From the NCBI GenBank assembly GCA_049322955.1, contig JBMOPU010000012.1:886186-950185 (forward strand): a stretch of 64,000 bases of DNA, in the 5' to 3' direction. The notes beneath the pieces are model-generated. The model searched no databases. It worked only from the letters and a program-made list of their open reading frames with translations, and had not been told where the DNA came from. Positions 22,994-63,326 of the stretch are shown piece after piece. Each line of letters begins with the position of its first letter. Position 1 is the first letter of the stretch. The position numbers and the translations under genes are program-made. The stretch comes from Patescibacteria group bacterium. GTDB taxonomy: Bacteria; Patescibacteriota; Microgenomatia; UBA10105; UBA927.

Positions 22994-24052
22994 TCAGGAA
23001 AGCGACGCATAGACCGACGCCGTTTCTTTTGCCACCCGTTTCCAGGTGAATTGTTTTGCCCATTCCATTTCGTTTTTTACCAGCTGTTTGCGTTCCTTGG
23101 GCGGAAGCATAACCGACTGTCGTATGGCACGCGCCAACTCCCCGGTATTGCCCGGATCGGCACTGAGCGCGGGACCCGATATTTCGGGGATACTCCCCCG
23201 GTCACTTGCCACCACCGGCACCCCGCACATCATCGCCTCTATCACCGGGAATCCGAACCCTTCATACCATGAAGGAAGCACTACGGATCGTGCACCGGAA
23301 TAGAGCGCGGACATATCCTCATCCCGGATAAATCCGGGGCGAATCACATGTTTCCCTATCCCGAGCGACGTAATAAGCTGCAGGATATCACGGGTTTCCC
23401 GCAGTTCCGTATTGGAAAACGCGCTGCCTGCCAACACTAATGTTGTGTTTCTGCTTCGGGAAAGTTTTGCCCTGGTCAGCTTCCACGCGGCAAGAAGTCC
23501 CGTAACGTTTTTGTTCCAGTTCACGTCCCCGACATACAGCACGTATTCCTCCGGCAGATGATATCGCTGTCGCATGGCACGAATCCTCTGCTCGTCGGTG
23601 ACCCGCTTATAGGACGGCGAGGGGGCAAGGGGCACTACATGGATTTTTTCTTCCTGTTTGCCCGTCAATTTCGCGATATCTTTTTTGCTTGATCGGGAAT
23701 CGGTCACAATCGCCGCGGCTCCCATAAGCGATAATCGCTGTATTTGCCATTTTACCCTGCCGCGAATCCCGGGCGGAAATTTATCCGGAAATAGCAGCGG
23801 AATCATGTCGTGGACGGTTACCACCGTGGGATAGTGCTTAAAAAACGGCAGGGTCAGAAAAAAAGGGTCAAAAAACGGATAATGCACGACATCCGTCTTT
23901 TTGAGGATATCCTCAACCCGGGTAAAAAAGGAATACGTGTGCCCTTTTTCGTATTTTAGCAGCGCGTCAATGAGGTTTTTGGTATAGACACCCGTCCCCC
24001 GCATCCGGTGTTCGGTCGAGAGCGGCAACGTATTTATCGCGATATTCATAAT
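22994..24052 (-). CDS. glycosyltransferase family 4
   Basis: VLPSWYEGFGFPVIEAMMCGVPVVAS. Start trimmed to MNIAINTL. Confidence 0.8.
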   Translation of the reverse strand: MMNIAINTLPLSTEHRMRGTGVYTKNLIDALLKYEKGHTYSFFTRVEDILKKTDVVHYPFFDPFFLTLPFFKHYPTVVTVHDMIPLLFPDKFPPGIRGRVKWQIQRLSLMGAAAIVTDSRSSKKDIAKLTGKQEEKIHVVPLAPSPSYKRVTDEQRIRAMRQRYHLPEEYVLYVGDVNWNKNVTGLLAAWKLTRAKLSRSRNTTLVLAGSAFSNTELRETRDILQLITSLGIGKHVIRPGFIRDEDMSALYSGARSVVLPSWYEGFGFPVIEAMMCGVPVVASDRGSIPEISGPALSADPGNTGELARAIRQSVMLPPKERKQLVKNEMEWAKQFTWKRVAKETASVYASLS

Positions 24053-25587
24053 TGCCTCTTGAGTATAAACGATACGAATGCGACAGACAACGAAAGAACG
24101 CCGATAAAAACGGACAGCCGCTGCCACCATGTCTCATGCAGTGCTATCTCGCCTTCCCGTACGCCGGAAGGAATCGTAAATGACGCAAGACCGCGTCCGT
24201 CGGGTTCACTGGGTATTGTTTTTTCTCCCGTGATAAATACCCATCCCGGATAGTGCGCGACGGGAGCGGTAAGCGTCCCGCTTGCGGTGGCGGTAAGGGA
24301 TATCGCATAACGGGTCGGTGCCGTTTTTTCCGCGGAGACGGTTCCCGATGACAGAGAAAACGGCGTGGTCGCAAGCGACTTGGGATCGCCGGTTATCCAT
24401 CGGGTCTGAAACGCATTCCCGAGCGACGAGGTGCCGCGGGACAATTGTTCATGCGCAAAATACTGTGCATCCGTCCGCGGCTGATAGATAACCGGATGAA
24501 AATACCGCCAGGTAAATGCAAATGCGCACACCACGATCAGAACGCTGACGACGTTTTTTCGCGCAACCGCGGCAGCGAGTATCGGGGTCGCTATGACGAT
24601 AACCGCAAGGAGCCGCCACGGATACTGGATGAGCGAAAGCGGCGGGATCATTTGCCATACAAACACAGAGACCGGCAACATGAAAAAAACGGCGGCAACA
24701 CCGAGCAGCCGATAGAAGAGGAGTTCTTTGCGAAGGTGATTTTCTTTCCGGGAAACAAAGAGACCTGCGATAAAAATCACCATCGGCATAATCCCGATCT
24801 GGTAGGACATTTCGGTAGCGCCTCCCGTTTGTCCGCGGTAGCCGCTTCCCCAGGATGGGAGCAACAACTGGTCTAACCGGGGAAAATAATCAAACACATT
24901 CACGTTACTGAGCCCGCTAATGAACTGCCGTTCATAGAGCGCGGGTATCCAAAACACACTCGACATACCCACACCCAGGAGTATGGCAAAAAGCCCTTGC
25001 CGGCAAAACAAAAAAGCGTACAGAAAAAGTACCGGCACAAATAGCATCGCCATAATGTTATGACTGACGATAAGAAGCGCCACACCGGCGGACGCCATAC
25101 CGTATCGTTTTTTCGTAAGCGCAAAGAGTGATGCAAATATGAAGGCGATCGCCCATATCTCGCCAAGGGAACCGCGGATATACATATCAAGAAACCAGTA
25201 CGGTACAAAAGCCCCTGCCAGCGCCCCGATCGCGGCACGGAATGTACCGAATTTTTCCTTGAGCCAGAGGTATGAAAAGAGCACGGCGACAATATAACCC
25301 GTTGCGGTAACTAATTTGACGCTATCGACAAATGAAAATCCGAATACATGAAACAATGCGCCTACCAGGTTGGGAAACGGATATTGAAACGTAAACAGCG
25401 GGATCCCCAACCCATAATTTAAATCCGGAGCCCATCGGGGAAATAACGTGCCGCCGGAAAGCATCGTAAAATACTGCCAGAACCGTATAATGTGATATTC
25501 ACCGTCATGGGTCGGAATAAATCCATTCCCGAACAACGGTGACGCGGCAAAAAGTACCGGAATAAGGACAAGGATAAACGGTATCAT
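24046..25587 (-). CDS. YfhO-related polytopic membrane glycosyltransferase-like protein (HD...RW paralog family, member 1 of 5)
   Basis: N-terminal PTHDGEYHIIR...FPRWAPDLNYGLGIPLFTFQYP, mid FVPYWFLDMYIRGSLGE, C-terminal YPGWVFITGE...IPSGV then a TM anchor. Start trimmed to MIPFILVL, which overlaps the upstream stop as ATGA. Confidence 0.6.
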   Translation of the reverse strand: MIPFILVLIPVLFAASPLFGNGFIPTHDGEYHIIRFWQYFTMLSGGTLFPRWAPDLNYGLGIPLFTFQYPFPNLVGALFHVFGFSFVDSVKLVTATGYIVAVLFSYLWLKEKFGTFRAAIGALAGAFVPYWFLDMYIRGSLGEIWAIAFIFASLFALTKKRYGMASAGVALLIVSHNIMAMLFVPVLFLYAFLFCRQGLFAILLGVGMSSVFWIPALYERQFISGLSNVNVFDYFPRLDQLLLPSWGSGYRGQTGGATEMSYQIGIMPMVIFIAGLFVSRKENHLRKELLFYRLLGVAAVFFMLPVSVFVWQMIPPLSLIQYPWRLLAVIVIATPILAAAVARKNVVSVLIVVCAFAFTWRYFHPVIYQPRTDAQYFAHEQLSRGTSSLGNAFQTRWITGDPKSLATTPFSLSSGTVSAEKTAPTRYAISLTATASGTLTAPVAHYPGWVFITGEKTIPSEPDGRGLASFTIPSGVREGEIALHETWWQRLSVFIGVLSLSVAFVSFILKRQL

Positions 25588-26723
25588 AGACGCTTTTTCG
25601 GAAAAATCCGCGATCCAAAAATCATCGATATTCCGTAGATGATAAGCGGAATTGCGGTAAGTACTACCCGTGCTATCGGCGTTATCCCCCCGTATTCCCT
25701 TGTCGCTATCCACGGAATGTACCGTGCCATAAGGCCCAACGAAAGCCAAAACACAACGCCGTGCATCAACCCGTTTGTTGTTCTCGGGATACACGCCGCG
25801 ATACTGATGAACCACACGGCATACCAGGGATACATTTCTTCACGCAAGGGACTAACGAGAAATACGCCGACCATAAGCCAAAACGCGTACCGGTATTTTT
25901 TATCGATTGAAAGCTTGGGGAGGAAAAATAACGGTAACAAGGCAACCGTTGCTCCTTTGATAAGTATCGAGGCGATAAACAAAAGCACGGCTACGATTTT
26001 TACGGGCACACCTTTTCTGTCCCATAAGACAAGCGAGCCGATGGCAAGCGCCATCATGGTGCCGTCGTTGTGACCGTTTATCAGCAGTTCCGTAACGATG
26101 AGCGGATTTGCCGCAAAAAACAGCACCTGATCCGTCCGCCCGGTTTTTCGGTAAATTAACCAACAAATAATCCCATACGAAACGCCCGCCAAGAGTTTGA
26201 ACGAAAAAATACTCAAAAATATGTGACCGTTTCCCGCCATGTGCGGAATCGCGGTAATTAAAATCCAAACCGGACCGTACAAGGCGAGTTTATTGGCTGC
26301 ACGCGTGAACGAAAGCATGGGTTCATTGGGTATTTCAATCGGCATCACCACATAGGGATTTTCCCTATACTGATAGGTTACTTTGGCAGTCGCGATGTAG
26401 TTGAATATGTCATAGGAAAGCGCCGGGAACGCAAACAGGGCAAGCAGGACGATACCGATAAGCATCCGGGGAATTTTTCGGATGCTCACCGTTGCCCGAT
26501 ATCGCAAAACATCGGCATAGGCGACGTACCAAATAACCAGAAAGACCCCGAAAAGCAGGGCGGTAAGCGGTGATTGCCGATACACCAAATACCGCATCAT
26601 ATCCTCCCATTGCCGGGTATAGGGAGCAAACGGGAGCGACAAATGCGGATCAATAAATCCGTAGGAGATAACGCAAAAAAGAAGTGCCGCAAGAATCGTC
26701 AACGCATATACCAATCGTTTCAT
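25584..26723 (-). CDS. polytopic membrane protein, uncharacterised (all-TM)
   Basis: 379 aa, about 10 TM helices, no recognised soluble domain. Confidence 0.5.
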   Translation of the reverse strand: MKRLVYALTILAALLFCVISYGFIDPHLSLPFAPYTRQWEDMMRYLVYRQSPLTALLFGVFLVIWYVAYADVLRYRATVSIRKIPRMLIGIVLLALFAFPALSYDIFNYIATAKVTYQYRENPYVVMPIEIPNEPMLSFTRAANKLALYGPVWILITAIPHMAGNGHIFLSIFSFKLLAGVSYGIICWLIYRKTGRTDQVLFFAANPLIVTELLINGHNDGTMMALAIGSLVLWDRKGVPVKIVAVLLFIASILIKGATVALLPLFFLPKLSIDKKYRYAFWLMVGVFLVSPLREEMYPWYAVWFISIAACIPRTTNGLMHGVVFWLSLGLMARYIPWIATREYGGITPIARVVLTAIPLIIYGISMIFGSRIFPKKRL

Positions 26724-26726
26724 AGG

Positions 26727-27260: not shown

Positions 27261-28024
27261 GATGCGAGAGATAATAAATACGCCTTAGGAAAATGGAGCG
27301 CTGAAAATAAGGCAAACAAAAACCCCCGCCATCCGTCGACAAATCCCTTATGACGGATAAACAGCAGGAAAAACGTACCAAGCGGTTTTCCCACAAGATA
27401 TGTTACCGCGGCGGCAATGCTTCGATTGCCTTTTTTTTCGGCAAGTTCGCGGGCGGTAAGGGCAATATACGCGGCGGATTTCTTCCAGTACTGCTTTGCC
27501 GAAACATAGGAATAGTGGTCAAGAGGATTGGAGAGTTTGCCTACCGAACCGGCTATCGTTATCTGCTCATGGACGCTTTTTTGGGGGAAACTTCCCTTCT
27601 CCCGCCTGAAGAGTCGGACGACATAATCCGGGTATTGCCCACCTTTGCGGAGCCAATCGCCCAAAAAATAATTTTTTCTCGGGATTGCGTATCCGTCAAG
27701 TGAATTGGCATTTGAGCATACCGCCCGGATTTCGGAGGCCAATTCATTACTCACCACCTCATCGGCATCGAGCTGGAGAATCCACACGCCGTGGGCATGA
27801 TCCAGTGCTTTTTGTTTATTGATGTGGAACATCGGCGGGTTGGTAGTTTCAATTACCGTAGCCCCGTGCTTTTTGGCAATGATCGCCGTGGTATCGGTAG
27901 ATGCGCCGTCCACCACCACGATTTCGTCGGCAAGCGTCCGCACCGACGCAAGACAGCGTTCGATATTTGCGGCTTCGTTATGGGTAGCCAGCGCTACGGT
28001 TATGAGGACATTCTTTTTCGCCAT
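27257..28024 (-). CDS. glycosyltransferase family 2
   Basis: ITVALATHNEAANIERCL ... EIVVVDGASTDTT ... LQLDADE. Confidence 0.8.
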   Translation of the reverse strand: MAKKNVLITVALATHNEAANIERCLASVRTLADEIVVVDGASTDTTAIIAKKHGATVIETTNPPMFHINKQKALDHAHGVWILQLDADEVVSNELASEIRAVCSNANSLDGYAIPRKNYFLGDWLRKGGQYPDYVVRLFRREKGSFPQKSVHEQITIAGSVGKLSNPLDHYSYVSAKQYWKKSAAYIALTARELAEKKGNRSIAAAVTYLVGKPLGTFFLLFIRHKGFVDGWRGFLFALFSALHFPKAYLLSLAS

Positions 28025-29715
28025 ATGAGTGCTATTGTACCAAGTGCCGCAAGAATAACGAGCGATGCCGCACTGATACCGTTGGCTACGGAGCGTAATT
28101 TTGTGTCCGAAAATACGAACCGGATATCATAGCTACCAGGATCCAAATCAAAGGTCATGAGTCCGCGATACGACGGATCCTGAAACTGCAAGGCATCGGC
28201 TTCAAGCGGGGCACCGTTTATCGTCACCCGCCATCCCGGAAAATAGAGCGTGTTCTCGACAAACCGCACGGGACCGGTCGTCTCCACATGATAGGAACGT
28301 ACGGTGCTGGTCCGTATTCCCTGGGTGATTCTGCCCTCACTGGGGATAAGGTACGCGGCGCTTTCGGGGCGGCGTTCCATAAAACGCACCGACCAAATAG
28401 GACTGCTTTCGCCGGTATCGGTGGTGCTGTTATAAATCCCCGTAAAAAACGACTCCGGATATTGTTTGTACTCCTTGGCTCGCCACATGGGAACGGTCGT
28501 AATAATCCCGACGATACAAAGGAATACGGCAATTTGTCTCCGCCGTTTGGGTGACGAAAGCACTACCGCAAGCGCTCCGATGACGGCAAGCAGAAACGTT
28601 GTGACCGACAAAAGCCTCCAGGGAAATTGGAATTTCTGAAGTATGGTAACCGTATTCCACAGCGGACTTGATAGTTGCGTCATGGCAAACAGCGTAAAGA
28701 ACAACAGCAGGATGCAGGCGATGAGAAGTTTTTGGTATTTCGAATTTTTCTCCAGTAAAAAGAATCCCACGATGAGCGCAAGCCACGGACCGGCTCCCAA
28801 CCATTTGGACAATTCATTTCCTCCGCCGTAGCTCCAGGGAGAATAAATAAACGCCGTCCACGGCACAAACCGTCCGGCAAATTCACCGGCAGTCACGATG
28901 TCACGAAGCGTATATTTTCCCTCAAAAAAACCCGGCACCCAATAAAATGCGGACAGCAAAAATCCCCATCCCACGGCAATCGCCGCGATCACCAAAAAAC
29001 GCGCACGAAGTTTTGTCTCGTGAACGGTCAAATAAATCGCATACCATGCAAGGATCGGCAAAAACATGATACTTAACGCGTTATGGGCAAGGATAAGACA
29101 TGCCACTCCCACCGCGATGACGGTACCGGGAGCAATCCCCCACCCCTTCCGTATATTTGAAAGCAAAAGCAAGCCGTATGCGATAATCGGCGGAAAGATA
29201 AATGCCATGTGTTCGCCGATTGCTCCCCGAACATACAGATCGATAAACCGATACGGTGCAAATCCGTATAGCACTGCGGCCGTCACCCCGGCCGCCACTC
29301 CCCATGAAGCACTTGCCCACAGATACATTGCCAAAATGCTGGCAATGAAACCGCTGGCAAAAACCAGCTTCGTGCTGTCAACGAATGAAAATCCCAAAAA
29401 GTGAAAGAGCGAGCCGACATACGAAGGAAGCGGATACAAAAACATAAGGATCGGATGTCCGTATCCCCAGTTCAGATTCGCCGCCCATCTCGGCACGATG
29501 TTCCCTTCCGAAAGAGACCGGTAAAAGTTTGCAATTCGCGCGATATGATCCTGCCCGTCATGCGTCACGGGAAAACCCGGATTGAGCAAATCAGAAAGCG
29601 GCAATAGCGCGACACAGAACAGACCGATCCATACTAATACGGAACGTATGTTTCGTTTCACTTTGTTTCCTCCATTATTCGTTTCTCGATAATAAACCCG
29701 CTCGGTAATTTCCAC
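28000..29715 (-). CDS. YfhO-related polytopic membrane protein (HD...RW family, member 2)
   Basis: FPVTHDGQDHIARI...VPRWAANLNWGYGHPILMFLYPLPSY, FAPYRFIDLYVRGAIGE, C-terminal YFPGWRVTINGAPL...LDPGSYDIRF then a TM anchor. Confidence 0.6.
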   Translation of the reverse strand: MEITERVYYRETNNGGNKVKRNIRSVLVWIGLFCVALLPLSDLLNPGFPVTHDGQDHIARIANFYRSLSEGNIVPRWAANLNWGYGHPILMFLYPLPSYVGSLFHFLGFSFVDSTKLVFASGFIASILAMYLWASASWGVAAGVTAAVLYGFAPYRFIDLYVRGAIGEHMAFIFPPIIAYGLLLLSNIRKGWGIAPGTVIAVGVACLILAHNALSIMFLPILAWYAIYLTVHETKLRARFLVIAAIAVGWGFLLSAFYWVPGFFEGKYTLRDIVTAGEFAGRFVPWTAFIYSPWSYGGGNELSKWLGAGPWLALIVGFFLLEKNSKYQKLLIACILLLFFTLFAMTQLSSPLWNTVTILQKFQFPWRLLSVTTFLLAVIGALAVVLSSPKRRRQIAVFLCIVGIITTVPMWRAKEYKQYPESFFTGIYNSTTDTGESSPIWSVRFMERRPESAAYLIPSEGRITQGIRTSTVRSYHVETTGPVRFVENTLYFPGWRVTINGAPLEADALQFQDPSYRGLMTFDLDPGSYDIRFVFSDTKLRSVANGISAASLVILAALGTIALIWRKRMSS

Positions 29716-31187: not shown

Positions 31188-32816
31188 TTATTTCGTCACG
31201 GCGATAATTGCCGTTTCTCCGTTTTTATTGGCAAACCGTTTCAGTACCTTGGCTCCTGCGGGAACCCCGTTGCTATCGTAGAGATACAGCGTATCCTCAC
31301 TCATATCTTCCGTTCGTTCGGGAAGAAATCCGAACGCGTATGAGCCTATGGTATGGGAGGCTGCAAATCCGCCGGACGTGGTACCCCCCTGTGCCAGATA
31401 TTTTTTGGGATCGTAGTTACTGTAAAAAAGGAAAAACATATACGACTGATACAGCGCTCCCTGGTTACTCATTTCAATCCGGGCATAGGTTCCCTCCTGT
31501 TGTTTTACATACGAAACGGCTTCCGATATCGCGTATTGAAACGAATCGGATTGTTCACGCGGAAAGCGTATGAAGTACCCGTTCCAAAACACGGCTACTC
31601 CGCTTATCGCTACAATCGCAATAATCACTCCGAGCAATCGTTTTCCGTCGGATTTGAGCATGCCTATGACATACCATACCCCCAAAGCGGCAACAATTTG
31701 GGGAATAGGAATCGCCGAATAAAAACGCATCGCATGCGGTGCTCCGGTCGTCAGTGCCGCCGGTATGGGAGCCGCGACAAGGTATGCCGCAAGGAGGAGC
31801 GTTACACGTGACGGAAATTTCTTCTTGGCAAGAAAAACAACGCCGGCGACCAAAAACGGGAGTTCCCACAAATACAGAAGCCCCATACCCGGCACCTTGT
31901 GGGCTTCCCGCTCACTCCCTGTAAATAGCCATCGCGGGGAAAAATGCGAAAGATAATTCCCGGCAAAAATCGCAAGACTCGTCGTATATTTGCTATATAC
32001 CACCCGACCGAAGAGATCATGCCGCGTTACCGCATCGGCGTATCGTGACGTTGCCTCCGTCATTACGGGACTATCGGGCGCAAACGCGCTTGTTCCCTTA
32101 AACCGCGACATACCTTCCGGCGAAAGACTGACAATCATTGCCGGTATCGCAATAACACTCCCCGCCATGACCGCGATAATCACCTGCTTTTTTTCACGCA
32201 GTAGTTCTTTCCAAAAAAGTAGGAGGGTGACAGCGGCAATGCAGGGTACGATCAGCTTCTGGCTTTGATACCCGTGCAGTGAAAGTGCGAAGAATACCGC
32301 CGTATATATCCAATCCCGTCCACGCTTTGCAATAACTGCGCGAAGCAGGAAGTATAATCCGAGCACCGCGAGCGTAAGTCCCAAATTTGCCTCATGGCCG
32401 AGTCGTGACAGATAAATATGCCACGGAGAAATCGCGAGAATTGCGAGCGCCAGTTCTCCGATCGCACGAGTACCCAAATATTTGTTCCCGACAAGAACGC
32501 CTATTTGATACGTCGCCCATAGCGTAATAAGAGAGAGAACAAACGCGGGCAATCGCACGGCAACTGCGGTAAGGCCGAAAACCGCGACAAACGGGATGGT
32601 GAGATAGACATACAGCGCCGGCCGAAAGTCATCGTAGGCACGTAACAGCAACGGAAATGAGTTGCCGTATTCGTCTTTGCCGGTCACCATGATCGAATAG
32701 GCGTTATAGCCTATGGAAACCTCATCCAAAGACGGCGCGGGAGGAACGCTCCCGAGGTGCACAAGTCGCAACAATGCCGCGACGACAAAAAGTGTTACCA
32801 GGATATATCGCTTCAT
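31188..32816 (-). CDS. PMT_2/ArnT-like GT-C glycosyltransferase (GT39/GT83-like)
   Basis: LRLVHLGSVPPAPSLDEVSIGYNAYSIMVTGKDEYGNSFP...RLPAFV signature. About 11 TM helices plus a C-terminal soluble domain. 542 aa. Confidence 0.8.
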   Translation of the reverse strand: MKRYILVTLFVVAALLRLVHLGSVPPAPSLDEVSIGYNAYSIMVTGKDEYGNSFPLLLRAYDDFRPALYVYLTIPFVAVFGLTAVAVRLPAFVLSLITLWATYQIGVLVGNKYLGTRAIGELALAILAISPWHIYLSRLGHEANLGLTLAVLGLYFLLRAVIAKRGRDWIYTAVFFALSLHGYQSQKLIVPCIAAVTLLLFWKELLREKKQVIIAVMAGSVIAIPAMIVSLSPEGMSRFKGTSAFAPDSPVMTEATSRYADAVTRHDLFGRVVYSKYTTSLAIFAGNYLSHFSPRWLFTGSEREAHKVPGMGLLYLWELPFLVAGVVFLAKKKFPSRVTLLLAAYLVAAPIPAALTTGAPHAMRFYSAIPIPQIVAALGVWYVIGMLKSDGKRLLGVIIAIVAISGVAVFWNGYFIRFPREQSDSFQYAISEAVSYVKQQEGTYARIEMSNQGALYQSYMFFLFYSNYDPKKYLAQGGTTSGGFAASHTIGSYAFGFLPERTEDMSEDTLYLYDSNGVPAGAKVLKRFANKNGETAIIAVTK

Positions 32817-32821
32817 GCGTA

Positions 32822-34450: not shown

Positions 34451-34459
34451 ACTCAGTAG

Positions 34460-37346: not shown

Positions 37347-37381
37347 TGTACTAAATCAACTTATGCTTGACCATTGAGGGA

Positions 37382-44552: not shown

Positions 44553-44553
44553 T

Positions 44554-52019: not shown

Positions 52020-53072
52020 TTATTTCTCCCATCCCGCAATCAGCGCATCAAACGCACGGGTAAATTCCGCGTCACTAAAATCCTTGGCTTTTGCAATTCC
52101 CTTACCCGCCATTGATTGCATGGTTTTTTTATCGTCGATGAGCGCTTTGGTGAAACGGACTAATTCTTCCGGCGTATGCCATACACGACCGGTTACGCCG
52201 TCTTGGACAATCTCCAGTTGTCCGCCCGCGGCATACACAAGCGGAACAATACCCGCACTCATCGCCTCGGCGGTGGTTATCCCGAAATGTTCCATGTTCA
52301 CGGGATCGGTTACCCCGAATCCCGCGGCATGCCAATAAAACTGACTCGTCTGATACAGTGCAAGCAGTTCATCGTTGGTTATATTCGGGCAAAGCATAAC
52401 CGGGGTATTTTTCACCTTTTCACTCAGACGGGCAAAATATGCCTCATCGGACGGAATAAGCCCGCCCGCGAGCACTAACTGCCACCCTTTCAATAGATCG
52501 GACCGGTATCCGTCAAGAAACGCATCAATAAGCACGTCCTGTTTTTTTGCCTGGAAATATCCGGTAAATCTCCCCACCGAAAGTATCTGCTGTTTCCGCT
52601 TCCTGTTATGCCCGGGCGGCACCTGTTGAACGGGAGGATAAATTACCACCGCTTTTTCCCCTATCTGCGCATCCAACTGGTTCTTGGTAAATTCCGAATT
52701 GCATACGACGGCGTCATATCGACGCATTTTCCACGGATCAACAAGTACGGAGGCAAACGGCACCTGGAAGTGCAAAATATTATGTCTCGCCAATGTCCCG
52801 GGGATGCTTCCGTCACTCAGGAAAAAAATCAGATCATACTTTCGTGATTGCCAGAGTTTTTCAAAAATGTTGCCGTTTTTAAAAATATTCGGAACAACTT
52901 GAATACCCGACAGATCCAAACCGAATCGTTTTTCAGACTGGCTTATTATTTTCGGATCATCCCAAAACAGGGAAACCTGATGTTTTTTTGCCCAGTGGCT
53001 TGCAAGCGTCAGCGTGTATCGCTCGCCGCCGCCGAGACCGTCAAAGTAAGGATTATAAAACCCGATCTTCAT
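52020..53072 (-). CDS. glycosyltransferase family 4
   Basis: FGITTAEAMSAGIVPLV GT-B motif. Start trimmed to MKIGFYNPY, giving an ATGA overlap. Confidence 0.8.
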   Translation of the reverse strand: MKIGFYNPYFDGLGGGERYTLTLASHWAKKHQVSLFWDDPKIISQSEKRFGLDLSGIQVVPNIFKNGNIFEKLWQSRKYDLIFFLSDGSIPGTLARHNILHFQVPFASVLVDPWKMRRYDAVVCNSEFTKNQLDAQIGEKAVVIYPPVQQVPPGHNRKRKQQILSVGRFTGYFQAKKQDVLIDAFLDGYRSDLLKGWQLVLAGGLIPSDEAYFARLSEKVKNTPVMLCPNITNDELLALYQTSQFYWHAAGFGVTDPVNMEHFGITTAEAMSAGIVPLVYAAGGQLEIVQDGVTGRVWHTPEELVRFTKALIDDKKTMQSMAGKGIAKAKDFSDAEFTRAFDALIAGWEK

Positions 53073-55375
53073 TTTTTTGCCTTTCTGCGGAACATGAGAC
53101 CTAATCCTAGTGTAGCAAATCCGCTTACGATAGATCCCCACCATATATACGACGGCATATAGTGCATGCGCACCGTATGCGTACCCGCGGGAACGGCGAT
53201 CGCCCGAAACGCATAATCCGCACGATAGACGGGGGTTTTTATTCCGTCAACGGCCGCATGCCATCCCCTGTCATAGGCGTCGGAAAGGAAAAGAAGCGCG
53301 TCAGATGAGGTTTCAACGCCGATGATCACTTCATTGGGCGTGTAGGAAAGGATTGTCGCACTTCCCGTTCCGGGCTTCGGCGTAAGATGCGGCGTCGTTT
53401 CAAGGACCAGCGTACTCCGTCGATCCATCCCCTCCTTATACAACATATCGAGAACGGGCTGGTCGCCCGTTGCCGAGACAAACGAATACGCCAAAAATGC
53501 GCGGGGGTAACTTTCGGTGTTTTCGAGAATTTCAAAATGCTCATCCTCCCAGACGCGGTTGTAAGCGGGATATTCCCAAAACGGATATGCCCACGGAAGT
53601 CTGCCGTCGCTTTTTTTATGGAAATAATATCGCACCCCGAGAAGATTCAGCATGTCTTGGCTGTACTTGCCGTGTTTGTCAAAAACGACGACCGACCGGT
53701 CCACGGGACGCAGTATGCCTTCGCTGACGGATCCTATGAGCTTTCCGTATCGGTAACTATAGACCGCATCGTATCCCTCGATAAGCGGGATACCGAACGC
53801 AGAGCCCACTTCATTGCCGATGTTGCCGAATGCACGCGTATAACGTTGCCCGGTAAGACGTCGTAACTGTGTGATCGCGGGAACCTCAGGATACACCAGC
53901 GACTGCGGATCAAAGGGCATCCATTTTGCCGTAAAGCGATACATATCCACTCCCGTGATGAGCACAAATACCAACGGCAGGAGCCTAACAACCTTTCCGG
54001 AAAACATGATGCCCGACACAACAACCGCCATCCACAGGACGGCAAATCCCGTGGGAAGGGCAAGATTACGCATGGCGATGGCGAGTTTATCGGACGGAAG
54101 CGGCCGCGCGATGATAAGCGTCCCCCACAACACGAGCAACACGCCTCCCACACCGAGCACGCTCCCTATCAGCGTTTTTTTATTTCGTTTTGCCCACCAG
54201 TTCCGTACGGTATCCGTACCGTACGCGGAAAGCACGGCAAGGGAAAAACTCGCCAGAATGATGATCCGTGACGCGGAGCTTGTCGATAAGACCGGAATTT
54301 TGAGGAAGAACAAAAGATCAACAAGCGGTGTCTGGTATGCAAAAAGTAACGGAAGCACCGACATCACCGCAAAGAACCGCACCTCGCGAAGCCGTCTTCC
54401 GAAGACGGCGGCTATGACCGCAAAAAACAGCGGGGCTACGCCGACATATCCGGCCCATTCCGCATAGTGACCGAACCAATCGTTTCTTGTTACGGGATTG
54501 CCGTAAAAGTCAGGGGCAAGGAGCGTGGGGAAATATTGCCACGGAATCACTTCTCCCTTGATAAATAGCGTACTGCGCACCGCTTCCGTATAGGCTATAA
54601 AACCGGAAAAAATTTGCGGGGCGGCAATAAGTACCCCCGCCAATACGGCAAAAACCGCTCCGGGTACTTTGTGCCTATTCGTTTTATCAAACCATACAAG
54701 CACACAATACCCCAAAACATACAACAGTACGTACAGACTCATTTGAAAATGCCCGGAAAGAAACGAAAGTGCTATCGCTCCGGCGACAAGGAAACCTCCC
54801 GACCGGTATGCGGTGCCGATCAGGAGATCTATACCCAACAGCGCATACGGAAGGAATAACACGGCATACCCTAACGTCCCGTACGCCATCCATACGGTCA
54901 TAAATCCGCAGAACATAAATGCGATGCTTCCGATCAGCCGAGCTTCGACGCTTAAGGCTCGCCGTGACAGGAAAAGATACATACCCGCACCCGCAAGCAG
55001 AGGCTGGAGCAAAATCATCAGGCTCCATGCGAGTTTTTCCGGAAACAAAAATAACAGATTAACGGGGGAAAACACCGCCGTTTGATACGTCCCTACATGG
55101 CTGGTTCCCGAAAAACTGTACGGATTCCACAGAGGAAGTTGTCCCTGTTTCCACGAAGAGACGGTCAACCGCTTCCAGGGATAGATCTGGGTAATGACGT
55201 CAGGCATCGCATTATTTTTCACCGGCATCGCATACGTCGCCGCCCAGGGGGTAAAAAACGTGGCAAGGTAACTCCCGGGAAACGGCATGTTGCCCGAAAG
55301 AATCGGTGCCCCCAAAAGACCGGTGAGAAACAGAATGACACCGAAAGGCAAAAATCGATGTAACAGTTTATTCAT
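53069..55375 (-). CDS. YfhO-family GT-C membrane glycosyltransferase
   Basis: IYPWKRLTVSSWKQGQLPLWNPYSFSGTSHVGTYQTAVFSPV and C-terminal YDRGWHAAVDGI...VPAGTHTVRMHYMP then a TM anchor. I verified the start ATG at 55375 (MNKLLHRF). Confidence 0.75.
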   Translation of the reverse strand: MNKLLHRFLPFGVILFLTGLLGAPILSGNMPFPGSYLATFFTPWAATYAMPVKNNAMPDVITQIYPWKRLTVSSWKQGQLPLWNPYSFSGTSHVGTYQTAVFSPVNLLFLFPEKLAWSLMILLQPLLAGAGMYLFLSRRALSVEARLIGSIAFMFCGFMTVWMAYGTLGYAVLFLPYALLGIDLLIGTAYRSGGFLVAGAIALSFLSGHFQMSLYVLLYVLGYCVLVWFDKTNRHKVPGAVFAVLAGVLIAAPQIFSGFIAYTEAVRSTLFIKGEVIPWQYFPTLLAPDFYGNPVTRNDWFGHYAEWAGYVGVAPLFFAVIAAVFGRRLREVRFFAVMSVLPLLFAYQTPLVDLLFFLKIPVLSTSSASRIIILASFSLAVLSAYGTDTVRNWWAKRNKKTLIGSVLGVGGVLLVLWGTLIIARPLPSDKLAIAMRNLALPTGFAVLWMAVVVSGIMFSGKVVRLLPLVFVLITGVDMYRFTAKWMPFDPQSLVYPEVPAITQLRRLTGQRYTRAFGNIGNEVGSAFGIPLIEGYDAVYSYRYGKLIGSVSEGILRPVDRSVVVFDKHGKYSQDMLNLLGVRYYFHKKSDGRLPWAYPFWEYPAYNRVWEDEHFEILENTESYPRAFLAYSFVSATGDQPVLDMLYKEGMDRRSTLVLETTPHLTPKPGTGSATILSYTPNEVIIGVETSSDALLFLSDAYDRGWHAAVDGIKTPVYRADYAFRAIAVPAGTHTVRMHYMPSYIWWGSIVSGFATLGLGLMFRRKAKK

Positions 55376-57030: not shown

Positions 57031-57032
57031 GG

Positions 57033-57932
57033 TTATTTTCCCAGTTTTCGCGTAATCTTATGACGAAGTTTTCCCAAAACGGATTTTGTTTCCTCGATCC
57101 GCGCGGTACTTATCCAATACGACACCTCTTTTCCCGTTTTTTTCATTTCGGCAATGACCGTTTCGACGGGAATCTCCATATCGACAAACCGTTCACGCTC
57201 CCAAAGCTTTATGAAAATGAGAAAGGAATAGAACGCCTGAAGCAGGGCAAGCACTAATCCGTGCAACCCGTCCTTATACCCTCCCTGGGCAAAATAGAGT
57301 TTGATAAAATCGGAAGCGGGAAAACGGATCGCATCCTGCCACGTGACGGTATATCCCAGAGAAACATATTTCTGCACCTCATTTTCGGTGTACACCCGCT
57401 CCATTTTTTCCAAATACTGTCCGACGCTATCATAGTTATAGTGCGTATAGGGATTTTTGAGCGTGCCGAGCTTTCCTGCAACATCGATATACTCATGGAC
57501 ATGCTTTTGGGGATACTTTCCCGCGCCATTTTTGAAAAGCCGTAACTGAAGATCGGGCCACCATATGCCGTGTTGAATCCACTTGCCGAAAATCATGTTT
57601 TTGCGCGGTATCCAATATCCGTCCGCATCGTCTTGTGAAATTGCGGCGCGTATTTCTTCCGAAAGAGGGAGAGTCACTTCTTCATCGTCATCCAGGCAAA
57701 GAATCCAATCCCCGCTTGCTTTGGAAAAACCGAAATTCTTATTCACGTTCAGCATCAGATTATTCGGTCGCGAAAAAACTTTTGCGCCGAACTTTTTGGC
57801 CACTTGCGACGTGTCGTCGGATGATTCGTTATCGACGACAATAATCTCGTCGGCAAGCTTTTTTACGGAAGCAAGGGTTCTTGCCAGACTTTTTGCCCGG
57901 TTATGGGTACTGATGACGACGGATAGTTTCAT
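57033..57932 (-). CDS. glycosyltransferase family 2
   Basis: LSVVISTHNRAKSL ... EIIVVDNESSDDT ... CLDDDEE. Confidence 0.8.
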   Translation of the reverse strand: MKLSVVISTHNRAKSLARTLASVKKLADEIIVVDNESSDDTSQVAKKFGAKVFSRPNNLMLNVNKNFGFSKASGDWILCLDDDEEVTLPLSEEIRAAISQDDADGYWIPRKNMIFGKWIQHGIWWPDLQLRLFKNGAGKYPQKHVHEYIDVAGKLGTLKNPYTHYNYDSVGQYLEKMERVYTENEVQKYVSLGYTVTWQDAIRFPASDFIKLYFAQGGYKDGLHGLVLALLQAFYSFLIFIKLWERERFVDMEIPVETVIAEMKKTGKEVSYWISTARIEETKSVLGKLRHKITRKLGK

Positions 57933-59380
57933 TGGGTGCTCCTCCTTATCATGCCGACAAATGCGTGTATTTTATTTTTTTCCAAGAAAAAAAGCGTGCC
58001 CGCATAGATCCCCATGCCGATAATTCCCAACAGAACGAGGTATATATAGGTATGCGGCACGACCGTAAGCGACACCCAATAGGAAATCCCCTGCACGACG
58101 GTTGCGATAATAGGCCCTTTGACGTTATCGATAAACGAAAAATCGGCAATCCCTTTCGCCACTCGGATAACGAGAATGATCGACAATGACACGACAAGGA
58201 GCGCAAGAGCGACACCGTTATAACCGAAAAATCGCATGAACAGCAGGGTACATGCCCACGTACCGACCGTCCATCCCACCATAAACGTTAACGTTGTGCG
58301 TATTTTCCCCACGGCATTTAACGCATTCATCAGCGGTGTCGAAAGTGCCGCGATAGCCGAGGAAAAAACAAAAAAGTAAAACGACAAAAGCGCGGGTTCC
58401 CATTTGGCATAGCGGGGTATGAGACCGACCATCGGATGGACAAAAAACAGCAACCCCGTCGATAGCGGCAGAATAGCGGAAGCCAAACCGAACATTGTTT
58501 TATCAATTGCTTTTTCCAGAAGCTTTTTGTCATGTTGGAGCCGTGAATACGTGGGAAACGTCACGCGGATGACGCTATCCATGATAAGCCTCAGCGGAAC
58601 CTCCGCCCATTTTTTCGCCCATCCGATGTATCCTACTTCCGCAAACGGTAAAACCCTACCCAAAAAAACCGTCATAAGATCGTCCTTTAACAGAGCCAAA
58701 AACGAATTCATCTGGAACGGAATACCAAATTTCATCAGCCGCTTTGCGCTTGCCCGGGAGACCGTGAATCGGGGAAACCAAGGCTCAACAATGTACATTG
58801 TGATAAGTCCGACAATCCCCCGCACCAATACCGCCCAGGTGAAACTTGTTATGCCCTGTCCTTTCCAGGCGAGAAAAACGGCCACGCCGTAAAAACCGAG
58901 CGTTTCCACGATATGGGGAATAACCAAACGATCAAAGGAAAGTTTCCGTTCAAGTAATACCGAGGGAATGGTCTTGAGACTCGAAAGAAAGAACGATACG
59001 GCGAGTGCGCGAAACAACCACACTCCCGACGCGTCAAGCCGATAAAACGATGCGATAAATTCGGATAATACCAGACTAATGACAACGAGCGTGAGAACCA
59101 GCGCCTGTTGAATGACAAACGTGGTATTTAAGTCGTCGAGCGTCACCTCATCCTTTTTTTGCACCAATGCGGCGGCCAATCCGATGTCGGAAAAATATCC
59201 CAGGAACGAAATAATCGCGGAAACGACATAAAAAACGCCGAAGACGTCCGGGGTCAAAAAAAGCGTTAATAAAAATGTCGCTCCGAACGCGACTACCTGA
59301 AGGATAAACGTGCGAACGGTGAGGGCCACAACTCCGACAACCGAGCGTTTTTTTATAACCTCCAAATCAATGTCTGGCAT
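57929..59380 (-). CDS. Wzx-type oligosaccharide flippase (MOP superfamily, Polysacc_synt)
   Basis: 483 aa, about 14 TM helices. N-terminal KRSVVGVVALTVRTFILQVVAFGATFLLTLFLTPDVFGVFYVV is typical of Wzx/TagG-like flippases. Confidence 0.8.
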   Translation of the reverse strand: MPDIDLEVIKKRSVVGVVALTVRTFILQVVAFGATFLLTLFLTPDVFGVFYVVSAIISFLGYFSDIGLAAALVQKKDEVTLDDLNTTFVIQQALVLTLVVISLVLSEFIASFYRLDASGVWLFRALAVSFFLSSLKTIPSVLLERKLSFDRLVIPHIVETLGFYGVAVFLAWKGQGITSFTWAVLVRGIVGLITMYIVEPWFPRFTVSRASAKRLMKFGIPFQMNSFLALLKDDLMTVFLGRVLPFAEVGYIGWAKKWAEVPLRLIMDSVIRVTFPTYSRLQHDKKLLEKAIDKTMFGLASAILPLSTGLLFFVHPMVGLIPRYAKWEPALLSFYFFVFSSAIAALSTPLMNALNAVGKIRTTLTFMVGWTVGTWACTLLFMRFFGYNGVALALLVVSLSIILVIRVAKGIADFSFIDNVKGPIIATVVQGISYWVSLTVVPHTYIYLVLLGIIGMGIYAGTLFFLEKNKIHAFVGMIRRSTQ

Positions 59381-60149
59381 ACGGTAGCTTTCTCCACGGC
59401 CGCGTGGTATATAACCGCCACAATCCTTTCAAGTCCCCAAGCGCCGTTTTCATGACACGCACCGTAGACCCGGGATTATCGATCCACGTCACCGGTTCTT
59501 CGTAAATCCGATACCCGCTCTTCTCACCGACGATCAGGAGTTCACTGTCAAAAAACCATTCGTTATCTTTCACCTGCGGCATGAGCTCGCGTACGACCCT
59601 TCGGGAGACCGCCTTAAATCCGCATTGCGCATCGGTGAAATTCACCCAGAAAAAAAGCTTGATAAGGCTGATATATCCTTTTGATGTAATCGACCGAAGG
59701 GTGCTTCTGCCGAATACTCTCGCTCCCTTCGTATTTCTGCTCCCTATTGCCATGTCAAAACCGCGCTCGAGCGCATGCAAGAGCGGCGGCAGGTGCTTCA
59801 GATCGGTCGAAAGATCTATATCCATGTAGGCAAGATAATCATAGTCGCCTTTGCGCCAGACGTGCTTCACCGCCCTTCCCCGTCCTTTTTGCGAAAGATG
59901 TTCTACCGACACGGATTGATACGTACGACTGAGTTCACGCGCGATTTTCAAAGTGGCATCGGTGCTTGCGTTATCGGCGATCGTTATATGCCAGGAAAAA
60001 TCGGAGAGATTTTTTGCCAGGTAACGGATGAGGGTGCCGACACTCGTTTTCAATTCCACCGCTTCGTTATACACGGGAAGCACGATATTAACGCTTGGTT
60101 TTGTGCTGCTTGGCATAAAGATAATAAATAAAAATAATAAGGCTAACAA
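59367..60149 (-). CDS. polyprenyl-phosphate glycosyltransferase (GT2; Dpm1/GtrB-like)
   Basis: VNIVLPVYNEAVEL ... ITIADNASTDATL ... QKGRGRAV ... YMDIDLSTDL. Confidence 0.75.
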   Translation of the reverse strand: MLALLFLFIIFMPSSTKPSVNIVLPVYNEAVELKTSVGTLIRYLAKNLSDFSWHITIADNASTDATLKIARELSRTYQSVSVEHLSQKGRGRAVKHVWRKGDYDYLAYMDIDLSTDLKHLPPLLHALERGFDMAIGSRNTKGARVFGRSTLRSITSKGYISLIKLFFWVNFTDAQCGFKAVSRRVVRELMPQVKDNEWFFDSELLIVGEKSGYRIYEEPVTWIDNPGSTVRVMKTALGDLKGLWRLYTTRPWRKLPYARH

Positions 60150-61737
60150 GCGAAATACCGTTGCCGATAACCCGTATCGGCGTATCGGTAAAACGCATGG
60201 TTATATACGACTGACCCGCGGCAAGAGTAAGCTCGGGCAATCCGTTTTTGACGGTCGGCCGTACTTCTTTATCGTCAATAAAATACCGCCAACCGGGAAA
60301 CGGCGCTTTGTTGATACGAACGGGCATCTCTTCCGCCGCAATGACGGACCATACTTCCCGGGTCGTGGTTTTTGTCAGCAACCGCGCCGACAGGCCGTTT
60401 CCTTCCTCTATTGTAGCAAAATCAGCTTCTTTCGGTGTGTCCGGCCGGGGGACGGAACGCGGAAGGTATTCATCGGAAATTTTTGATACCCGCCACCTGA
60501 CATCGGAAGGGGCTTCAAATGCGGTACTTGGTTTCTCATAGGTATATTGGGGCATAAACCATTTGCCGTTTAACAGTATAACCCCGACGCAAATGGCTAT
60601 GGTTGCCGCCCATTTGGCAACGGCGTTTTTTACCGGGAGCATCGCAAAACTTCCCAAGAGTGACGTGCCGAACATAAGAATCCCCAGAAAACGCCAGGGA
60701 TATTGAAGGTAGGCAAAGCCGGGGATGCTATCCCACAACCATTTTGAAGCTTCGGTCGCAAACAATACTCCTACAAATGCCGCGGCGACCGCAACTCCTA
60801 TAAGTCCGGCCATTCGTTTCGGCCGCAATACAAGCGCCGTCACCAGTCCGGCAAAACCGAGAAGCAGATGGGCTTTCCCGACCATAAACGACATGCCGTC
60901 AACACATCCTTTCGCGGATCCGCCGAATCCCCAGAGTGATGCGTACAGTTGGGTGATACATACGAAGTGATCCTTATAATCGGCACTGGCACTCACCTGG
61001 CCGGAAACCCCGGTAAACTGCATTTCAAACATTGCAGGGAGCCAGAAAAAACCCGCAAGCCCCATACCGAGAAGCAGCGGAACGGATGCGGAAAGCGTTT
61101 CGCGAAGCCGGTCGCGATTACGAAGATATCGAACCATCCGATACAGGACAAAGGAACACCCGACGAAGATCGTCACCGCAAATCCCATGAGGGTATGGGA
61201 GAGGATCACTCCTCCGATCCCGATCGCTCCCGCCGCCGCCGACTTCTTTGTTGCGGGTTTTCCCCATCCCGTAATCCAGTAGGCAATAAGGGGGAAAAAC
61301 ACGAGGGACCAATATTCACCCACCGCCCCCCGAACGTATATCTGTACCGCATGATAGGGCGCAAAAAGAAAGAGTACGCCGGCAAGAAGTCCGTACGGCA
61401 GTTCGATAAGCAGCGTTACCAACAATGCGGGCAGTAGGATCCCTGCGGCAAACATGATTTTGGTTGCCAAAACGGCGGGGACACCCACGGCATACAGCAA
61501 CCCGCCGAAATAATACGGTAACGGTCCGTAAAAATTAAAAATCGGATAACCGTATCCGTACCCTAACTCATTGACCCATCGGACGGGAAACTGGAAATCA
61601 CGAAGCGCCCTTCCCATTTCGATGACACGGGCAACCTGCGTATCATCGTGCATCGGGAAGAACCCCGGAGATACGAGCGGCCGGACGGCAAAAAAACCCG
61701 CAAGCGCAAGCAAAATATACGGTAGGACTCGTTTCAT
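60088..61737 (-). CDS. YfhO-related polytopic membrane protein (HD...RW family, member 4)
   Basis: FFPMHDDTQVARVI...FPVRWVNELGYGYGYPIFNFYGPLPYY, FAPYHAVQIYVRGAVGE, C-terminal PFPGWRYFIDDKEV then a TM anchor. I verified the start ATG at 61737 (ATGA overlap). Confidence 0.6.
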   Translation of the reverse strand: MKRVLPYILLALAGFFAVRPLVSPGFFPMHDDTQVARVIEMGRALRDFQFPVRWVNELGYGYGYPIFNFYGPLPYYFGGLLYAVGVPAVLATKIMFAAGILLPALLVTLLIELPYGLLAGVLFLFAPYHAVQIYVRGAVGEYWSLVFFPLIAYWITGWGKPATKKSAAAGAIGIGGVILSHTLMGFAVTIFVGCSFVLYRMVRYLRNRDRLRETLSASVPLLLGMGLAGFFWLPAMFEMQFTGVSGQVSASADYKDHFVCITQLYASLWGFGGSAKGCVDGMSFMVGKAHLLLGFAGLVTALVLRPKRMAGLIGVAVAAAFVGVLFATEASKWLWDSIPGFAYLQYPWRFLGILMFGTSLLGSFAMLPVKNAVAKWAATIAICVGVILLNGKWFMPQYTYEKPSTAFEAPSDVRWRVSKISDEYLPRSVPRPDTPKEADFATIEEGNGLSARLLTKTTTREVWSVIAAEEMPVRINKAPFPGWRYFIDDKEVRPTVKNGLPELTLAAGQSYITMRFTDTPIRVIGNGISLVSLIIFIYYLYAKQHKTKR

Positions 61738-63326
61738 GATGAGTGCGTTAGGCGCCGCAACACAATGCAATAACAGATAAACGACAGGATACTTATCAAA
61801 TCCGCGGCCAATCGAAACGGTGTCTCACGAAAATCGGCGGATACGACATGGGTTCCTTTGGGAATTTCGATACGCATGACTCCCAATCGGTTCGCATAAT
61901 CAATAGGCGTCAATCGGTTGTCAACGGTAATCCCCCATCCGGGATAATAAATTTTATTGATCTGAATCGTGCTTGACTCTTTTGCTTCCGCGGTAAAGGT
62001 GATTTTTTCGCCGGAAAACGTGCGCGTTGAAAGGAGAGCGTCGCCGTTTATCACTTCCAAGGTTTCCACGGGACGATTCACGGGGATATCATGCACCCAT
62101 CGGGGCATATACTCGTTTGCGACGGTAGTCGTCGCTTCGTTTGTCACGTAATAGCCCGTGTCACGCCGTACGGGAGAAACCTCACCCAATAGAACGGATG
62201 CCGTTGATAACCAAACTGAAAAAAGTACCGCGGATAAGGCGACCCGCCGCCAACCCGAAAGATGTTCAAAAACCGCGGCGATAATCCACGGCCCGAACAG
62301 TACGGGCAATAACAACGCGCGGTACGGAAACTGAAAAAGGACGGAAAATGCGGATATGTTCCATACGGGAGCAGTAATCGGAAGCGCAAGTATGATTCCC
62401 GCTATCGCCCAAAAAAATGCAACCGATTCAAACCGGGTAATTTTTTTCCGTAAGCCCAGAAATACCGCAAGCGCAACCACGGTGCCCAACCCGATAAGTC
62501 CGGCATTCAGCGGCGTAATAAAGTACGATGACGGATCCGAAATGACGACGGCATCAAACCGAACCAAATGTTTCTCCAGAAGGGCGGGAATCCAGAAAAA
62601 ACTGGCAAACCCCACGCCGATTGCGCCGGCGGTCAAAAACATGCCTCTTGCCGGAACGCTCATCGCAAGGGTGGCGATTGCAATCCCCAAAAGGAGCGCC
62701 GCCGAATTATGGCTTATGATAAGAAGCCCTATCATGGGGGCAAACAACCACCCCCACCCTCTGACAATGGCGGTGACGGCCCAGGATGCGGCGGCGATCG
62801 CCAGTACTTCTCCCACCGACCCACGATGATACATATCAAAAAGGAGATACGGAGCAAAGACAAGACTTACTGCCCCCATGGTCCGTGCCCATCTTCCGTA
62901 TGTTTTCCGAAGTCCCGCGTAGACGGCAATAACGGCCGAGACAACGGAACCGGCAAGGATGATTTTTACCGCATCCTGAAATGACGCGCCGAGAATATGC
63001 AGCAGGGATCCCAAGTAGAGAAACCCCGGATACAGAAAGTTACTCACCGGATAGCCGTAACTGTTGTTCAATCTTCCCAAAAATCGCACCGGGAATTGTC
63101 CGTCGGCGAGACTTTGATAGAATGCCGACAGCCGGATTATCATCCACTCACCGTCGTCCGTAATAAAAAATCCCGATCGCATCAGGGGTGTCAGAACAAG
63201 AAAAAGTGCCGCCGCAATAAGGAGCAACGACCAACGGGAGAAAAATCCCGAAGGACTCTCCCTATCACGGTTCGGGGCAAGTGAGTGGCCGGAGTTTTTT
63301 TGCATTGATGGTTTTTTCTTTCTCAT
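61734..63326 (-). CDS. YfhO-related polytopic membrane protein (HD...RW family, member 5)
   Basis: FFITDDGEWMIIRL...FPVRFLGRLNNSYGYPVSNFLYPGFLY, FAPYLLFDMYHRGSVGE, C-terminal YYPGWGITVDNRL...IPKGTHVV then a TM anchor. Confidence 0.6.
   Translation of the reverse strand: MRKKKPSMQKNSGHSLAPNRDRESPSGFFSRWSLLLIAAALFLVLTPLMRSGFFITDDGEWMIIRLSAFYQSLADGQFPVRFLGRLNNSYGYPVSNFLYPGFLYLGSLLHILGASFQDAVKIILAGSVVSAVIAVYAGLRKTYGRWARTMGAVSLVFAPYLLFDMYHRGSVGEVLAIAAASWAVTAIVRGWGWLFAPMIGLLIISHNSAALLLGIAIATLAMSVPARGMFLTAGAIGVGFASFFWIPALLEKHLVRFDAVVISDPSSYFITPLNAGLIGLGTVVALAVFLGLRKKITRFESVAFFWAIAGIILALPITAPVWNISAFSVLFQFPYRALLLPVLFGPWIIAAVFEHLSGWRRVALSAVLFSVWLSTASVLLGEVSPVRRDTGYYVTNEATTTVANEYMPRWVHDIPVNRPVETLEVINGDALLSTRTFSGEKITFTAEAKESSTIQINKIYYPGWGITVDNRLTPIDYANRLGVMRIEIPKGTHVVSADFRETPFRLAADLISILSFICYCIVLRRLTHSS

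Follow-up and report, generated by a model that had tools for sequence, protein, structure and literature searches.

A 64,000-nucleotide (nt) stretch of contig JBMOPU010000012.1 (Patescibacteria group bacterium, uncultivated and Gottesmanbacteria-like, assembly GCA_049322955.1, positions 886,186 to 950,185; hereafter the window) is nearly all one glycan-biosynthesis super-cluster, with at least 16 genes for glycosyltransferases (GTs) of the GT-C type. Five of its genes encode related membrane proteins, and the locus raises the question of what these paralogs are, how they arose and what they might do. We find that the five copies are anciently diverged subfamilies of one known, annotated and uncharacterised GT-C family, PF10131 (PTPS_related). 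As a general mechanism, we propose that they transfer sugars from polyprenyl-phosphate (polyprenyl-P) carriers to glycoconjugates at the cell surface, a reading to which we give a probability of about 0.7.

The five genes, named here by the lower coordinate of their span (Table 1), are open reading frames (ORFs) for proteins of 513–571 amino acids (aa). A first-pass annotation of this DNA had described them as collinear paralogs, and this description holds. The proteins align over their full length with 24–30% identity to the first sequence, and pairwise BLASTP comparisons give 114–256 bits at 25–33% identity. A profile hidden Markov model (HMM) made solely from database homologs of 38937 and run against the ORFs of the window matches all five copies, at E values from 1e-52 to 1e-271, while the next-best ORFs, the YfhO proteins, reach only about 1e-5 and none falls below 1e-5. 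These values put the similarity far beyond chance, and the gap shows that the window holds exactly five members of the family. The invariant columns of the five-protein alignment reproduce all four motif blocks described earlier, namely HD...R (D28, R35), RW...GYGxP...F (R51, G61, P63, F67), FAPY...RGxxGE (F127, P129, R138, G139, E143) and PGW...G (P447, G448, W449, G475), and add three more: SHN (H176), WxPAxxE (W213, P215, E219) and QFPWR (Q321, P323, R325). The histidines are the part of the earlier motifs that did not stand, as the copies differ at both such residues of the first block and at the one in the C-terminal 'PxGxH'. For example, the first block of 61734, in extracytoplasmic loop 1, reads TDDGEW, and the C-terminal His is absent from 60088 and 28000.

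Important steps in naming such a family include profile searches, for which the Pfam gathering thresholds are 26.4 bits for PF10131 and 28.5 bits for YfhO (PF09586). The former is passed by 38937 (33.9 bits) and 60088 (29.4 bits). None of the five reaches the latter: 28000 (17.2 bits) and 61734 (17.1 bits) give sub-threshold YfhO matches and the other three give none, 24046 having no match at all in the Pfam scan. No NCBIfam model matches any of the five. The PF10131 matches span just the N-terminal ~310 of 621 model positions, and this half-model coverage, together with the low scores, marks the window's candidate phyla radiation (CPR) proteins as peripheral members of the family. Of 565 proteins found in a homolog search, most have a precomputed PF10131 annotation, and an HMM of the PF10131-annotated orthologs matches all five copies at E <= 2.7e-52. 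Where the orthologs are named, they are called '6-pyruvoyl-tetrahydropterin synthase-related protein' and come from Patescibacteria/Gottesmanbacteria. These results support the first-pass suggestion that these are membrane proteins of the PTPS_related type. The family is a large one, since a profile of the five retrieved 6,946 cluster representatives (50% identity) at E <= 1e-30 among 1.84 billion. Its name is a historical misnomer. Taken literally, it would place the five in pterin or queuosine metabolism, as kin of 6-pyruvoyl-tetrahydropterin synthase, but the sole support for this is the name itself, inherited in NCBI and Pfam. Pfam detects no PTPS catalytic domain in the five, which are integral membrane proteins with 12 transmembrane (TM) helices and a GT-C fold; the neighbouring genes are all glycan-related; and the GT-C clan CL0111 includes PF10131, with function unknown (PMC7801869). 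We rejected the pterin-synthase reading of the name, which fold and domain content contradict, and give it practically no credence.

The fold itself was assessed with a structure model (predicted local distance difference test, pLDDT, 91.9; predicted template modelling score, pTM, 0.91) that has 12 TM helices and a beta-sandwich. Comparison with solved GT-C enzymes gave AglB 21.5, Pmt4 20.4, AftA 20.4, Pmt2 19.6, STT3B 19.1, AftD 19.0, ALG12 17.8, ArnT 17.2 and PglB 17.0, and this similarity supports a predicted GT-C fold for the paralogs, in line with the earlier guess at their superfamily. In the predicted architecture both ends are cytoplasmic, and an Asp that does not vary lies in the first outside loop, which is long. 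Other invariant residues (Arg, Lys, His and Glu) lie at the outer face of the membrane, and a small outside beta-sandwich precedes the final anchor helix. The density of Lys plus Arg is 0.25 in loops predicted to be inside and 0.06 in short outside loops, in 146/146 family members, and these positive-inside statistics place all conserved residues outside the cytoplasm, as had been claimed. In this set of 146 sequences, which covers all five subfamilies and whose residue numbering is used from here on, the positions conserved in at least 90% of members are D32, R39, R55, G65, P67, K95, R143, G144, E148, H189, N190, P234, W333, Q343, P345, R347, E415, P472, W474 and G494. D32 is 98% conserved and belongs to an (H/D)-D-(G/D/S) motif 10 residues past TM1, so that the first extracytoplasmic loop carries an acidic (DxD-like) motif of the kind looked for in GT-C enzymes.

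The first-pass annotation had treated the family as a distinct branch of the YfhO superfamily. Local profile–profile comparison (hhalign) does match its TM core to the window's three YfhO proteins at 96.7% (E 4.5e-10), global comparison of the five-member family with these proteins reaches 99.2% in an alignment that is collinear over the whole length, and the C-terminal ~120 residues match the three YfhO C-termini at 97.5% (E 6.9e-12), which bears out the C-terminal module said to be common to them. However, the N-terminal half, including loop 1, matches the PMT_2 proteins of the window just as well (96.4%, E 1.4e-9), while the comparison of window YfhO with window PMT_2 was not significant. 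By this pattern, the family is a compact GT-C of YfhO architecture that bridges PMT_2 and YfhO within the GT-C clan, and not simply a sub-branch of YfhO; the homology claimed earlier stands and the exclusive tie to YfhO does not. Besides the TM core, the five have in common with YfhO (PF09586; YfhO of B. subtilis, S. aureus and Listeria, PgtC2, PgfM1/M2) the C-terminal 'aromatic-x-GW ... PxG(T)H' beta module with its anchor helix, as well as partner genes for GT2 enzymes of the C55-phosphate (C55-P)-sugar-synthase type, comparable to CsbB/YfhO and GtrB/PgtC2. They differ in size (~530–570 aa against 750–800 aa), in having none of the ~250–300 residues of extra helices and extracytoplasmic domain found at roughly residues 400–690 of YfhO in the global alignment, and in their RGxxGE, WxPAxxE and QFPWR motifs, which the YfhO proteins of the window do not conserve. 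The full YfhO architecture, which spans about 750–850 aa and includes additional TM helices and a large domain outside the cytoplasm, is thus absent from all five. PMT_2/GT39-like and ArnT-type enzymes (GtlB, GacL, ArnT, Pmt) differ in another way, since PMT_2 is without the YfhO-type C-terminal beta-sandwich and terminal anchor, and no PMT_2 Pfam match was found in the five paralogs.

Gene order can reveal how such copies arose. A comparative scan with one genome per species gave 76 loci, of which those with informative titles belong to Gottesmanbacteria, Levybacteria, Woesebacteria, Shapirobacteria and other Patescibacteria. The best matches to the window's proteins are 72–100% identical and lie in Gottesmanbacteria-type contigs, and an identical 18-kb contig occurs in SRR32167788. 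The PTPS_related genes of these loci sort cleanly by paralog, with 67 of the 38937 type, 26 of the 60088 type, 23 of the 61734 type (~37% identity), 21 of the 28000 type (~51% identity; best 81%, in L008) and 4 that fall weakly with 24046 (31–33% identity). Of the 61 loci whose flanks are long enough, 60 have a YfhO gene directly downstream of the ortholog of 38937, and PMT_2 comes next in 54; in the window, the start of the YfhO gene 40567 overlaps the stop of 38937 by 8 nt.

The adjacency of 61734 and 60088 had been ascribed to tandem duplication. A recent duplication confined to this genome, leaving redundant and drifting copies, some of them possibly inactive, would fit two adjoining members that overlap by 4 nt (an ATGA, read directly, that joins the stop of 61734 to the start of 60088) and a window with five copies. 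Identity values and ortholog order contradict it, and we rejected this very improbable reading. The five copies are merely 25–33% identical pairwise and the two neighbours only 26%, whereas each neighbour shares 37–42% identity with the gene at the matching position in other lineages. For four of the five, separate orthologs exist in other species, at 35–81% identity and with large score margins, and every family-wide conserved residue is kept by all five. In addition, 17 tandem pairs at other loci keep the order of the window, with the 61734-type gene (A) first, as it is in every pair, and the 60088-type gene (B) second. Low mutual identity, closer positional counterparts and recurrent order together argue for an old pair that has been maintained, and the comparison of sequences thus points to an ancient ordered pair. 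Translationally coupled, the products of 61734 and 60088 probably act as a heterodimer, for which Pmt1–Pmt2 and EmbA–EmbB offer a plausible parallel.

The surroundings of this pair also suggest where a sugar donor would come from. In 24 of 26 loci, the gene after the 60088-type one encodes a GT2 resembling dolichol-phosphate-mannose synthase (DPMS), ArnC and GtrB. In the window this GT2 is 59367, which presumably makes the lipid-linked donor. Its closest solved relative is the Pyrococcus furiosus dolichol-P-mannose synthase (5mlz, E 1.7e-16, near full length), followed by ArnC and GtrB, and its best NCBIfam matches, DPhHxTase, PgfS, AglJ and ArnC, are all below their cut-offs. Adjacent to it is 57929, a candidate Wzx-like flippase with a counterpart, 52% identical, downstream of the tandem pair in locus L049. 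The second GT2 of this kind, 22300, matches the NCBIfam AglJ model over its full length (E 1.3e-33, below cut-off), and in 4 loci the gene that comes after the 60088-type GT-C matches it best. Multi-component transmembrane glycosylation systems combine a GT-A C55-P-sugar synthase, a flippase and a GT-C (Rismondo, Gillis, Gründling 2021), and all three component types are found together, in one direction, in 61734 -> 60088 -> 59367 -> 57929, an arrangement kept in other species. CsbB/GtcA/YfhO and GtrB/PgtC2 have been described as such systems (PMC8035078; PMC12041528; PMC5836110), and GT-C enzymes of the YfhO family use C55-P-sugars from CsbB/GtrB-type GT2s for teichoic acid glycosylation (PMC8035078; PMC5836110). 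The window differs from them in having two GT-C genes per GT2, a Wzx-type in place of a GtrA-type flippase, and a block embedded among at least 16 GT-C genes; teichoic acids are also not established for this lineage.

Taken together, these data can be arranged into a candidate pathway. Cytoplasmic GT2s of the DPMS/GtrB/ArnC type (59367, 22300 and 20260) would load single sugars onto polyprenyl phosphate, and the Wzx-like flippase would bring the lipid-linked sugar to the outer face. There, each paralog would move sugar onto a different position or acceptor of a cell-surface glycoconjugate, with the loop-1 Asp as putative catalytic base, K95, R143 and R347 as likely ligands of the carrier phosphate, and the beta-sandwich possibly helping to hold the acceptor. 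The paralogs would share one conserved pathway with the YfhO and PMT_2 enzymes, a reading drawn from the triad order, the 17 A/B pairs, the ATGA overlap and the existence of fused copies. Proteins with two copies in one chain occur, and the second half of one of them (P0121) is of the 60088 type. Four database proteins (P0121–P0124) of 1,093–3,329 aa carry two to six full-length PTPS_related copies per chain. They may be real fusions, which an even number of TM helices makes topologically possible, or merged gene calls.

Several points weigh against this proposal. Three of the five copies (24046, 28000 and 61734) are below the PF10131 threshold, a literature search on PF10131, PTPS_related and the NCBI name found no characterised member, and the family profile had no sequence match among all PDB chains even at E 10. 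The clustering of the conserved residues and the equation of D32 with the catalytic Asp of ArnT, PglB or PMT are suggested by topology only, no GtrA-type flippase was identified, and the organism is uncultivated. No acceptor polymer or protein could be identified from sequence, and activity, donor and acceptor are proposed entirely by analogy. A GT-C fold could also be kept without a transferase role, in scaffold or chaperone-like subunits, as PIG-U is in the glycosylphosphatidylinositol transamidase, or in acceptor-recognition partners of YfhO and PMT_2, which we consider unlikely here.

Alternatively, the paralogs could be protein O-glycosyltransferases, comparable to streptococcal PgtC2/PgfM1 or actinobacterial Pmt, that place single sugars on Ser/Thr-rich secreted, S-layer or pilus proteins and extend no glycopolymer. 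The YfhO-family enzymes PgtC2 and PgfM1 modify Ser/Thr-rich disordered regions with undecaprenyl-phosphate sugars made by GtrB or PgfS (PMC12041528), PMT_2/PMT-like genes are abundant in the cluster, and the GT2 is similar to PgfS and AglJ. However, the window holds no candidate gene for a Ser/Thr-rich acceptor, and at least 16 GT-C genes with GT4s and GT2s, a Wzx flippase and epimerases fit the assembly of a complex glycan better. Such a role is possible and we regard it as doubtful; transfer to surface glycoconjugates in general is the reading that we prefer.

For PF10131, large and misleadingly named, this analysis shows a compact YfhO-like GT-C with a set of invariant residues facing outside. 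Its CPR members fall into at least four or five ancient subfamilies whose gene partners are fixed, namely YfhO, PMT_2 and the DPMS-like GT2. The results point to a conserved pathway for glycosylation of the cell surface in a lineage with a barely characterised envelope. Two features seen across Microgenomates may be new: the PTPS_related–YfhO–PMT_2 triad, and the A/B pair in its fixed order, accompanied by a donor synthase of its own. A literature search found no paper on either and returned nothing relevant tying CPR/Patescibacteria or Gottesmanbacteria to GT-C enzymes or mannosyltransferases, although such an absence does not prove novelty. As a new lead the conserved operon is modest, and the rest is mainly the correct annotation of a known family. 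A more speculative picture is that Microgenomates (Gottesmanbacteria, Levybacteria and relatives) have an extracytoplasmic 'assembly line', in which the three GT-C families of the triad and an obligate A/B heterodimer with its own synthase and flippase build a lineage-specific surface coat of glycan or glycoprotein, largely outside the membrane, from polyprenyl-P-monosaccharides. Mycobacterial arabinogalactan and lipoarabinomannan synthesis and the ALG steps of the endoplasmic reticulum lumen would be its analogues. We hold this tentatively; if true, the assembly line could be central to host attachment by these ultra-small bacteria. For reconstitution, 61734, 60088 and 59367 are concrete targets as a trio; for mutagenesis, so are D32, K95, R143, H189 and R347.

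Table 1 Features of the window, with positions counted from its first nucleotide; HMM E values are those of the 38937-homolog model.
Feature	Position	Strand	Remarks
PTPS_related (PF10131) GT-C paralog 1	38937–40574	+	12 TM, extracytoplasmic beta-sandwich (residues 433–511), C-terminal TM anchor; first gene of conserved PTPS_related -> YfhO -> PMT_2 triad
PTPS_related-type paralog 2	28000–29715	-	HMM E 1.5e-112; weak YfhO Pfam match; start codon uncertain by ~20 codons; separate orthogroup in Gottesmanbacteria-type loci, adjoining PMT_2 triplet
PTPS_related-type paralog 3	24046–25587	-	HMM E 4.7e-75; most divergent copy; no Pfam match
PTPS_related-type paralog 4, 'A' (first) of ordered tandem pair	61734–63326	-	HMM E 2.7e-52; C-terminus matches Pfam YfhO positions 757–830
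PTPS_related-type paralog 5, 'B' (second) of tandem pair	60088–61737	-	HMM E 6.8e-62; PF10131 29.4 bits
GT2, polyprenyl-P-sugar-synthase type	59367–60149	-	Pfam Glycos_transf_2; directly downstream of paralog 5
Wzx-type polysaccharide/lipid-linked sugar flippase candidate	57929–59380	-	Pfam Polysacc_synt_3, E 1.3e-50
Second polyprenyl-P-sugar-synthase-like GT2 (AglJ/DPM1-like)	22300–23010	-	Glycos_transf_2, E 1.6e-36
Further polyprenyl-P-sugar-synthase-type GT2	20260–21216		
Canonical YfhO (PF09586) GT-C, second triad gene	40567–42921	+	Pfam 66.9 bits
Two PMT_2 (GT39-like) GT-C genes, third triad position	42918–44552, 44551–46206	+	Pfam PMT_2/PMT
GT-C block upstream of triad	31188–38893	-	Pfam; synteny in L002–L019 and others; PMT_2 31188–32816, 32822–34450, 34460–36094; GT87-like 36066–37346; PMT_2 37382–38893
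YfhO paralog	49776–52016	-	Pfam 73.6 bits; C-terminal module covers HMM positions 1–80 of 108 only
YfhO paralog	53069–55375	-	Pfam 106.1 bits; ORF reaches 55471, likely start 55375
Large membrane protein with YfhO-like C-terminal module, outside five-member family	4345–6360	-	In low-GC left part

The arrangement of these genes differs between lineages. In Levybacteria-type loci (L020, L040, L049 and others) a single direction is kept through weak-PMT_2, PTPS_related-1, YfhO, PMT_2, PTPS_related-A, PTPS_related-B, GT2 and flippase, whereas in the window the triad (38937–46206, plus strand) stands apart from the A–B–GT2–flippase block (57929–63905, minus strand), on the opposite strand. The continuous order in one and the split order in the other suggest one ancestral operon that was rearranged later. 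At the edge of the window, the 186-aa ORF at 63345–63905 (minus strand) matches just the C-terminal ~175 residues of the ~505-aa weak-PMT_2 protein that lies directly upstream of the PTPS_related/YfhO/PMT_2 triad in Levybacteria-type loci (2673–4190 in L039), and the gene at the edge may have been truncated or frameshifted.

The GT-C block upstream of the triad is kept in Gottesmanbacteria-type loci. One of its members, the PMT_2 gene 34460–36094, is 100% identical to L008 5526–7157 while the flanking genes are 69–90% identical, a hint that related strains recombined recently or that the assembly is chimeric. Many metagenome-assembled genome records (L003, L007, L008, L011–L014 and others) titled 'uncultured Gammaproteobacteria bacterium' carry the Microgenomates-type cluster with orthologs that are 45–83% identical, and these titles look like placeholder mislabels.

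Among the YfhO-like proteins, the YfhO paralog 49776–52016 stops right after the VPEGTHRITLSYR strand, without the terminal TM anchor that is present in the other two YfhO proteins of the window and in all five PTPS_related copies. The C-terminal module had also been claimed for 4345–6360. Its C-terminus matches that of YfhO with moderate support (hhalign 90.5%, E 1.3e-6) and that of the five-member family at just 24.8%, so the claim is more weakly supported here than for the three YfhO proteins. Its TM core compares weakly with YfhO (53%), and it has no Pfam match. Family membership was likewise considered for the unassigned membrane proteins 7434–9668, 46218–47936, 25584–26723, 6372–7424 and 21053–22357, and hhalign gave it no support.

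The left 16 kb of the window (1–16000) has a G+C content of 37–43%, against 48–51% in the rest (16000–64000). For the ORFs in 653–18414, the 76 related loci offer hardly any relatives. This left part has its own GT-C-like genes (4345–6360, 7434–9668, 10828–12441), along with epimerases, methyltransferases and GT2/GT4 genes, and it may represent either a glycosylation island gained by lateral transfer or a join made in assembly. Two overlapping pairs of hydrophobic ORFs on the minus strand, of ~200–270 aa and without a Pfam match, were also noted. The pair 9649–10275/10233–10823 resembles a split membrane protein, and the two ORFs of the pair 29658–30470/30383–31183 have separate homologs in Gottesmanbacteria loci.

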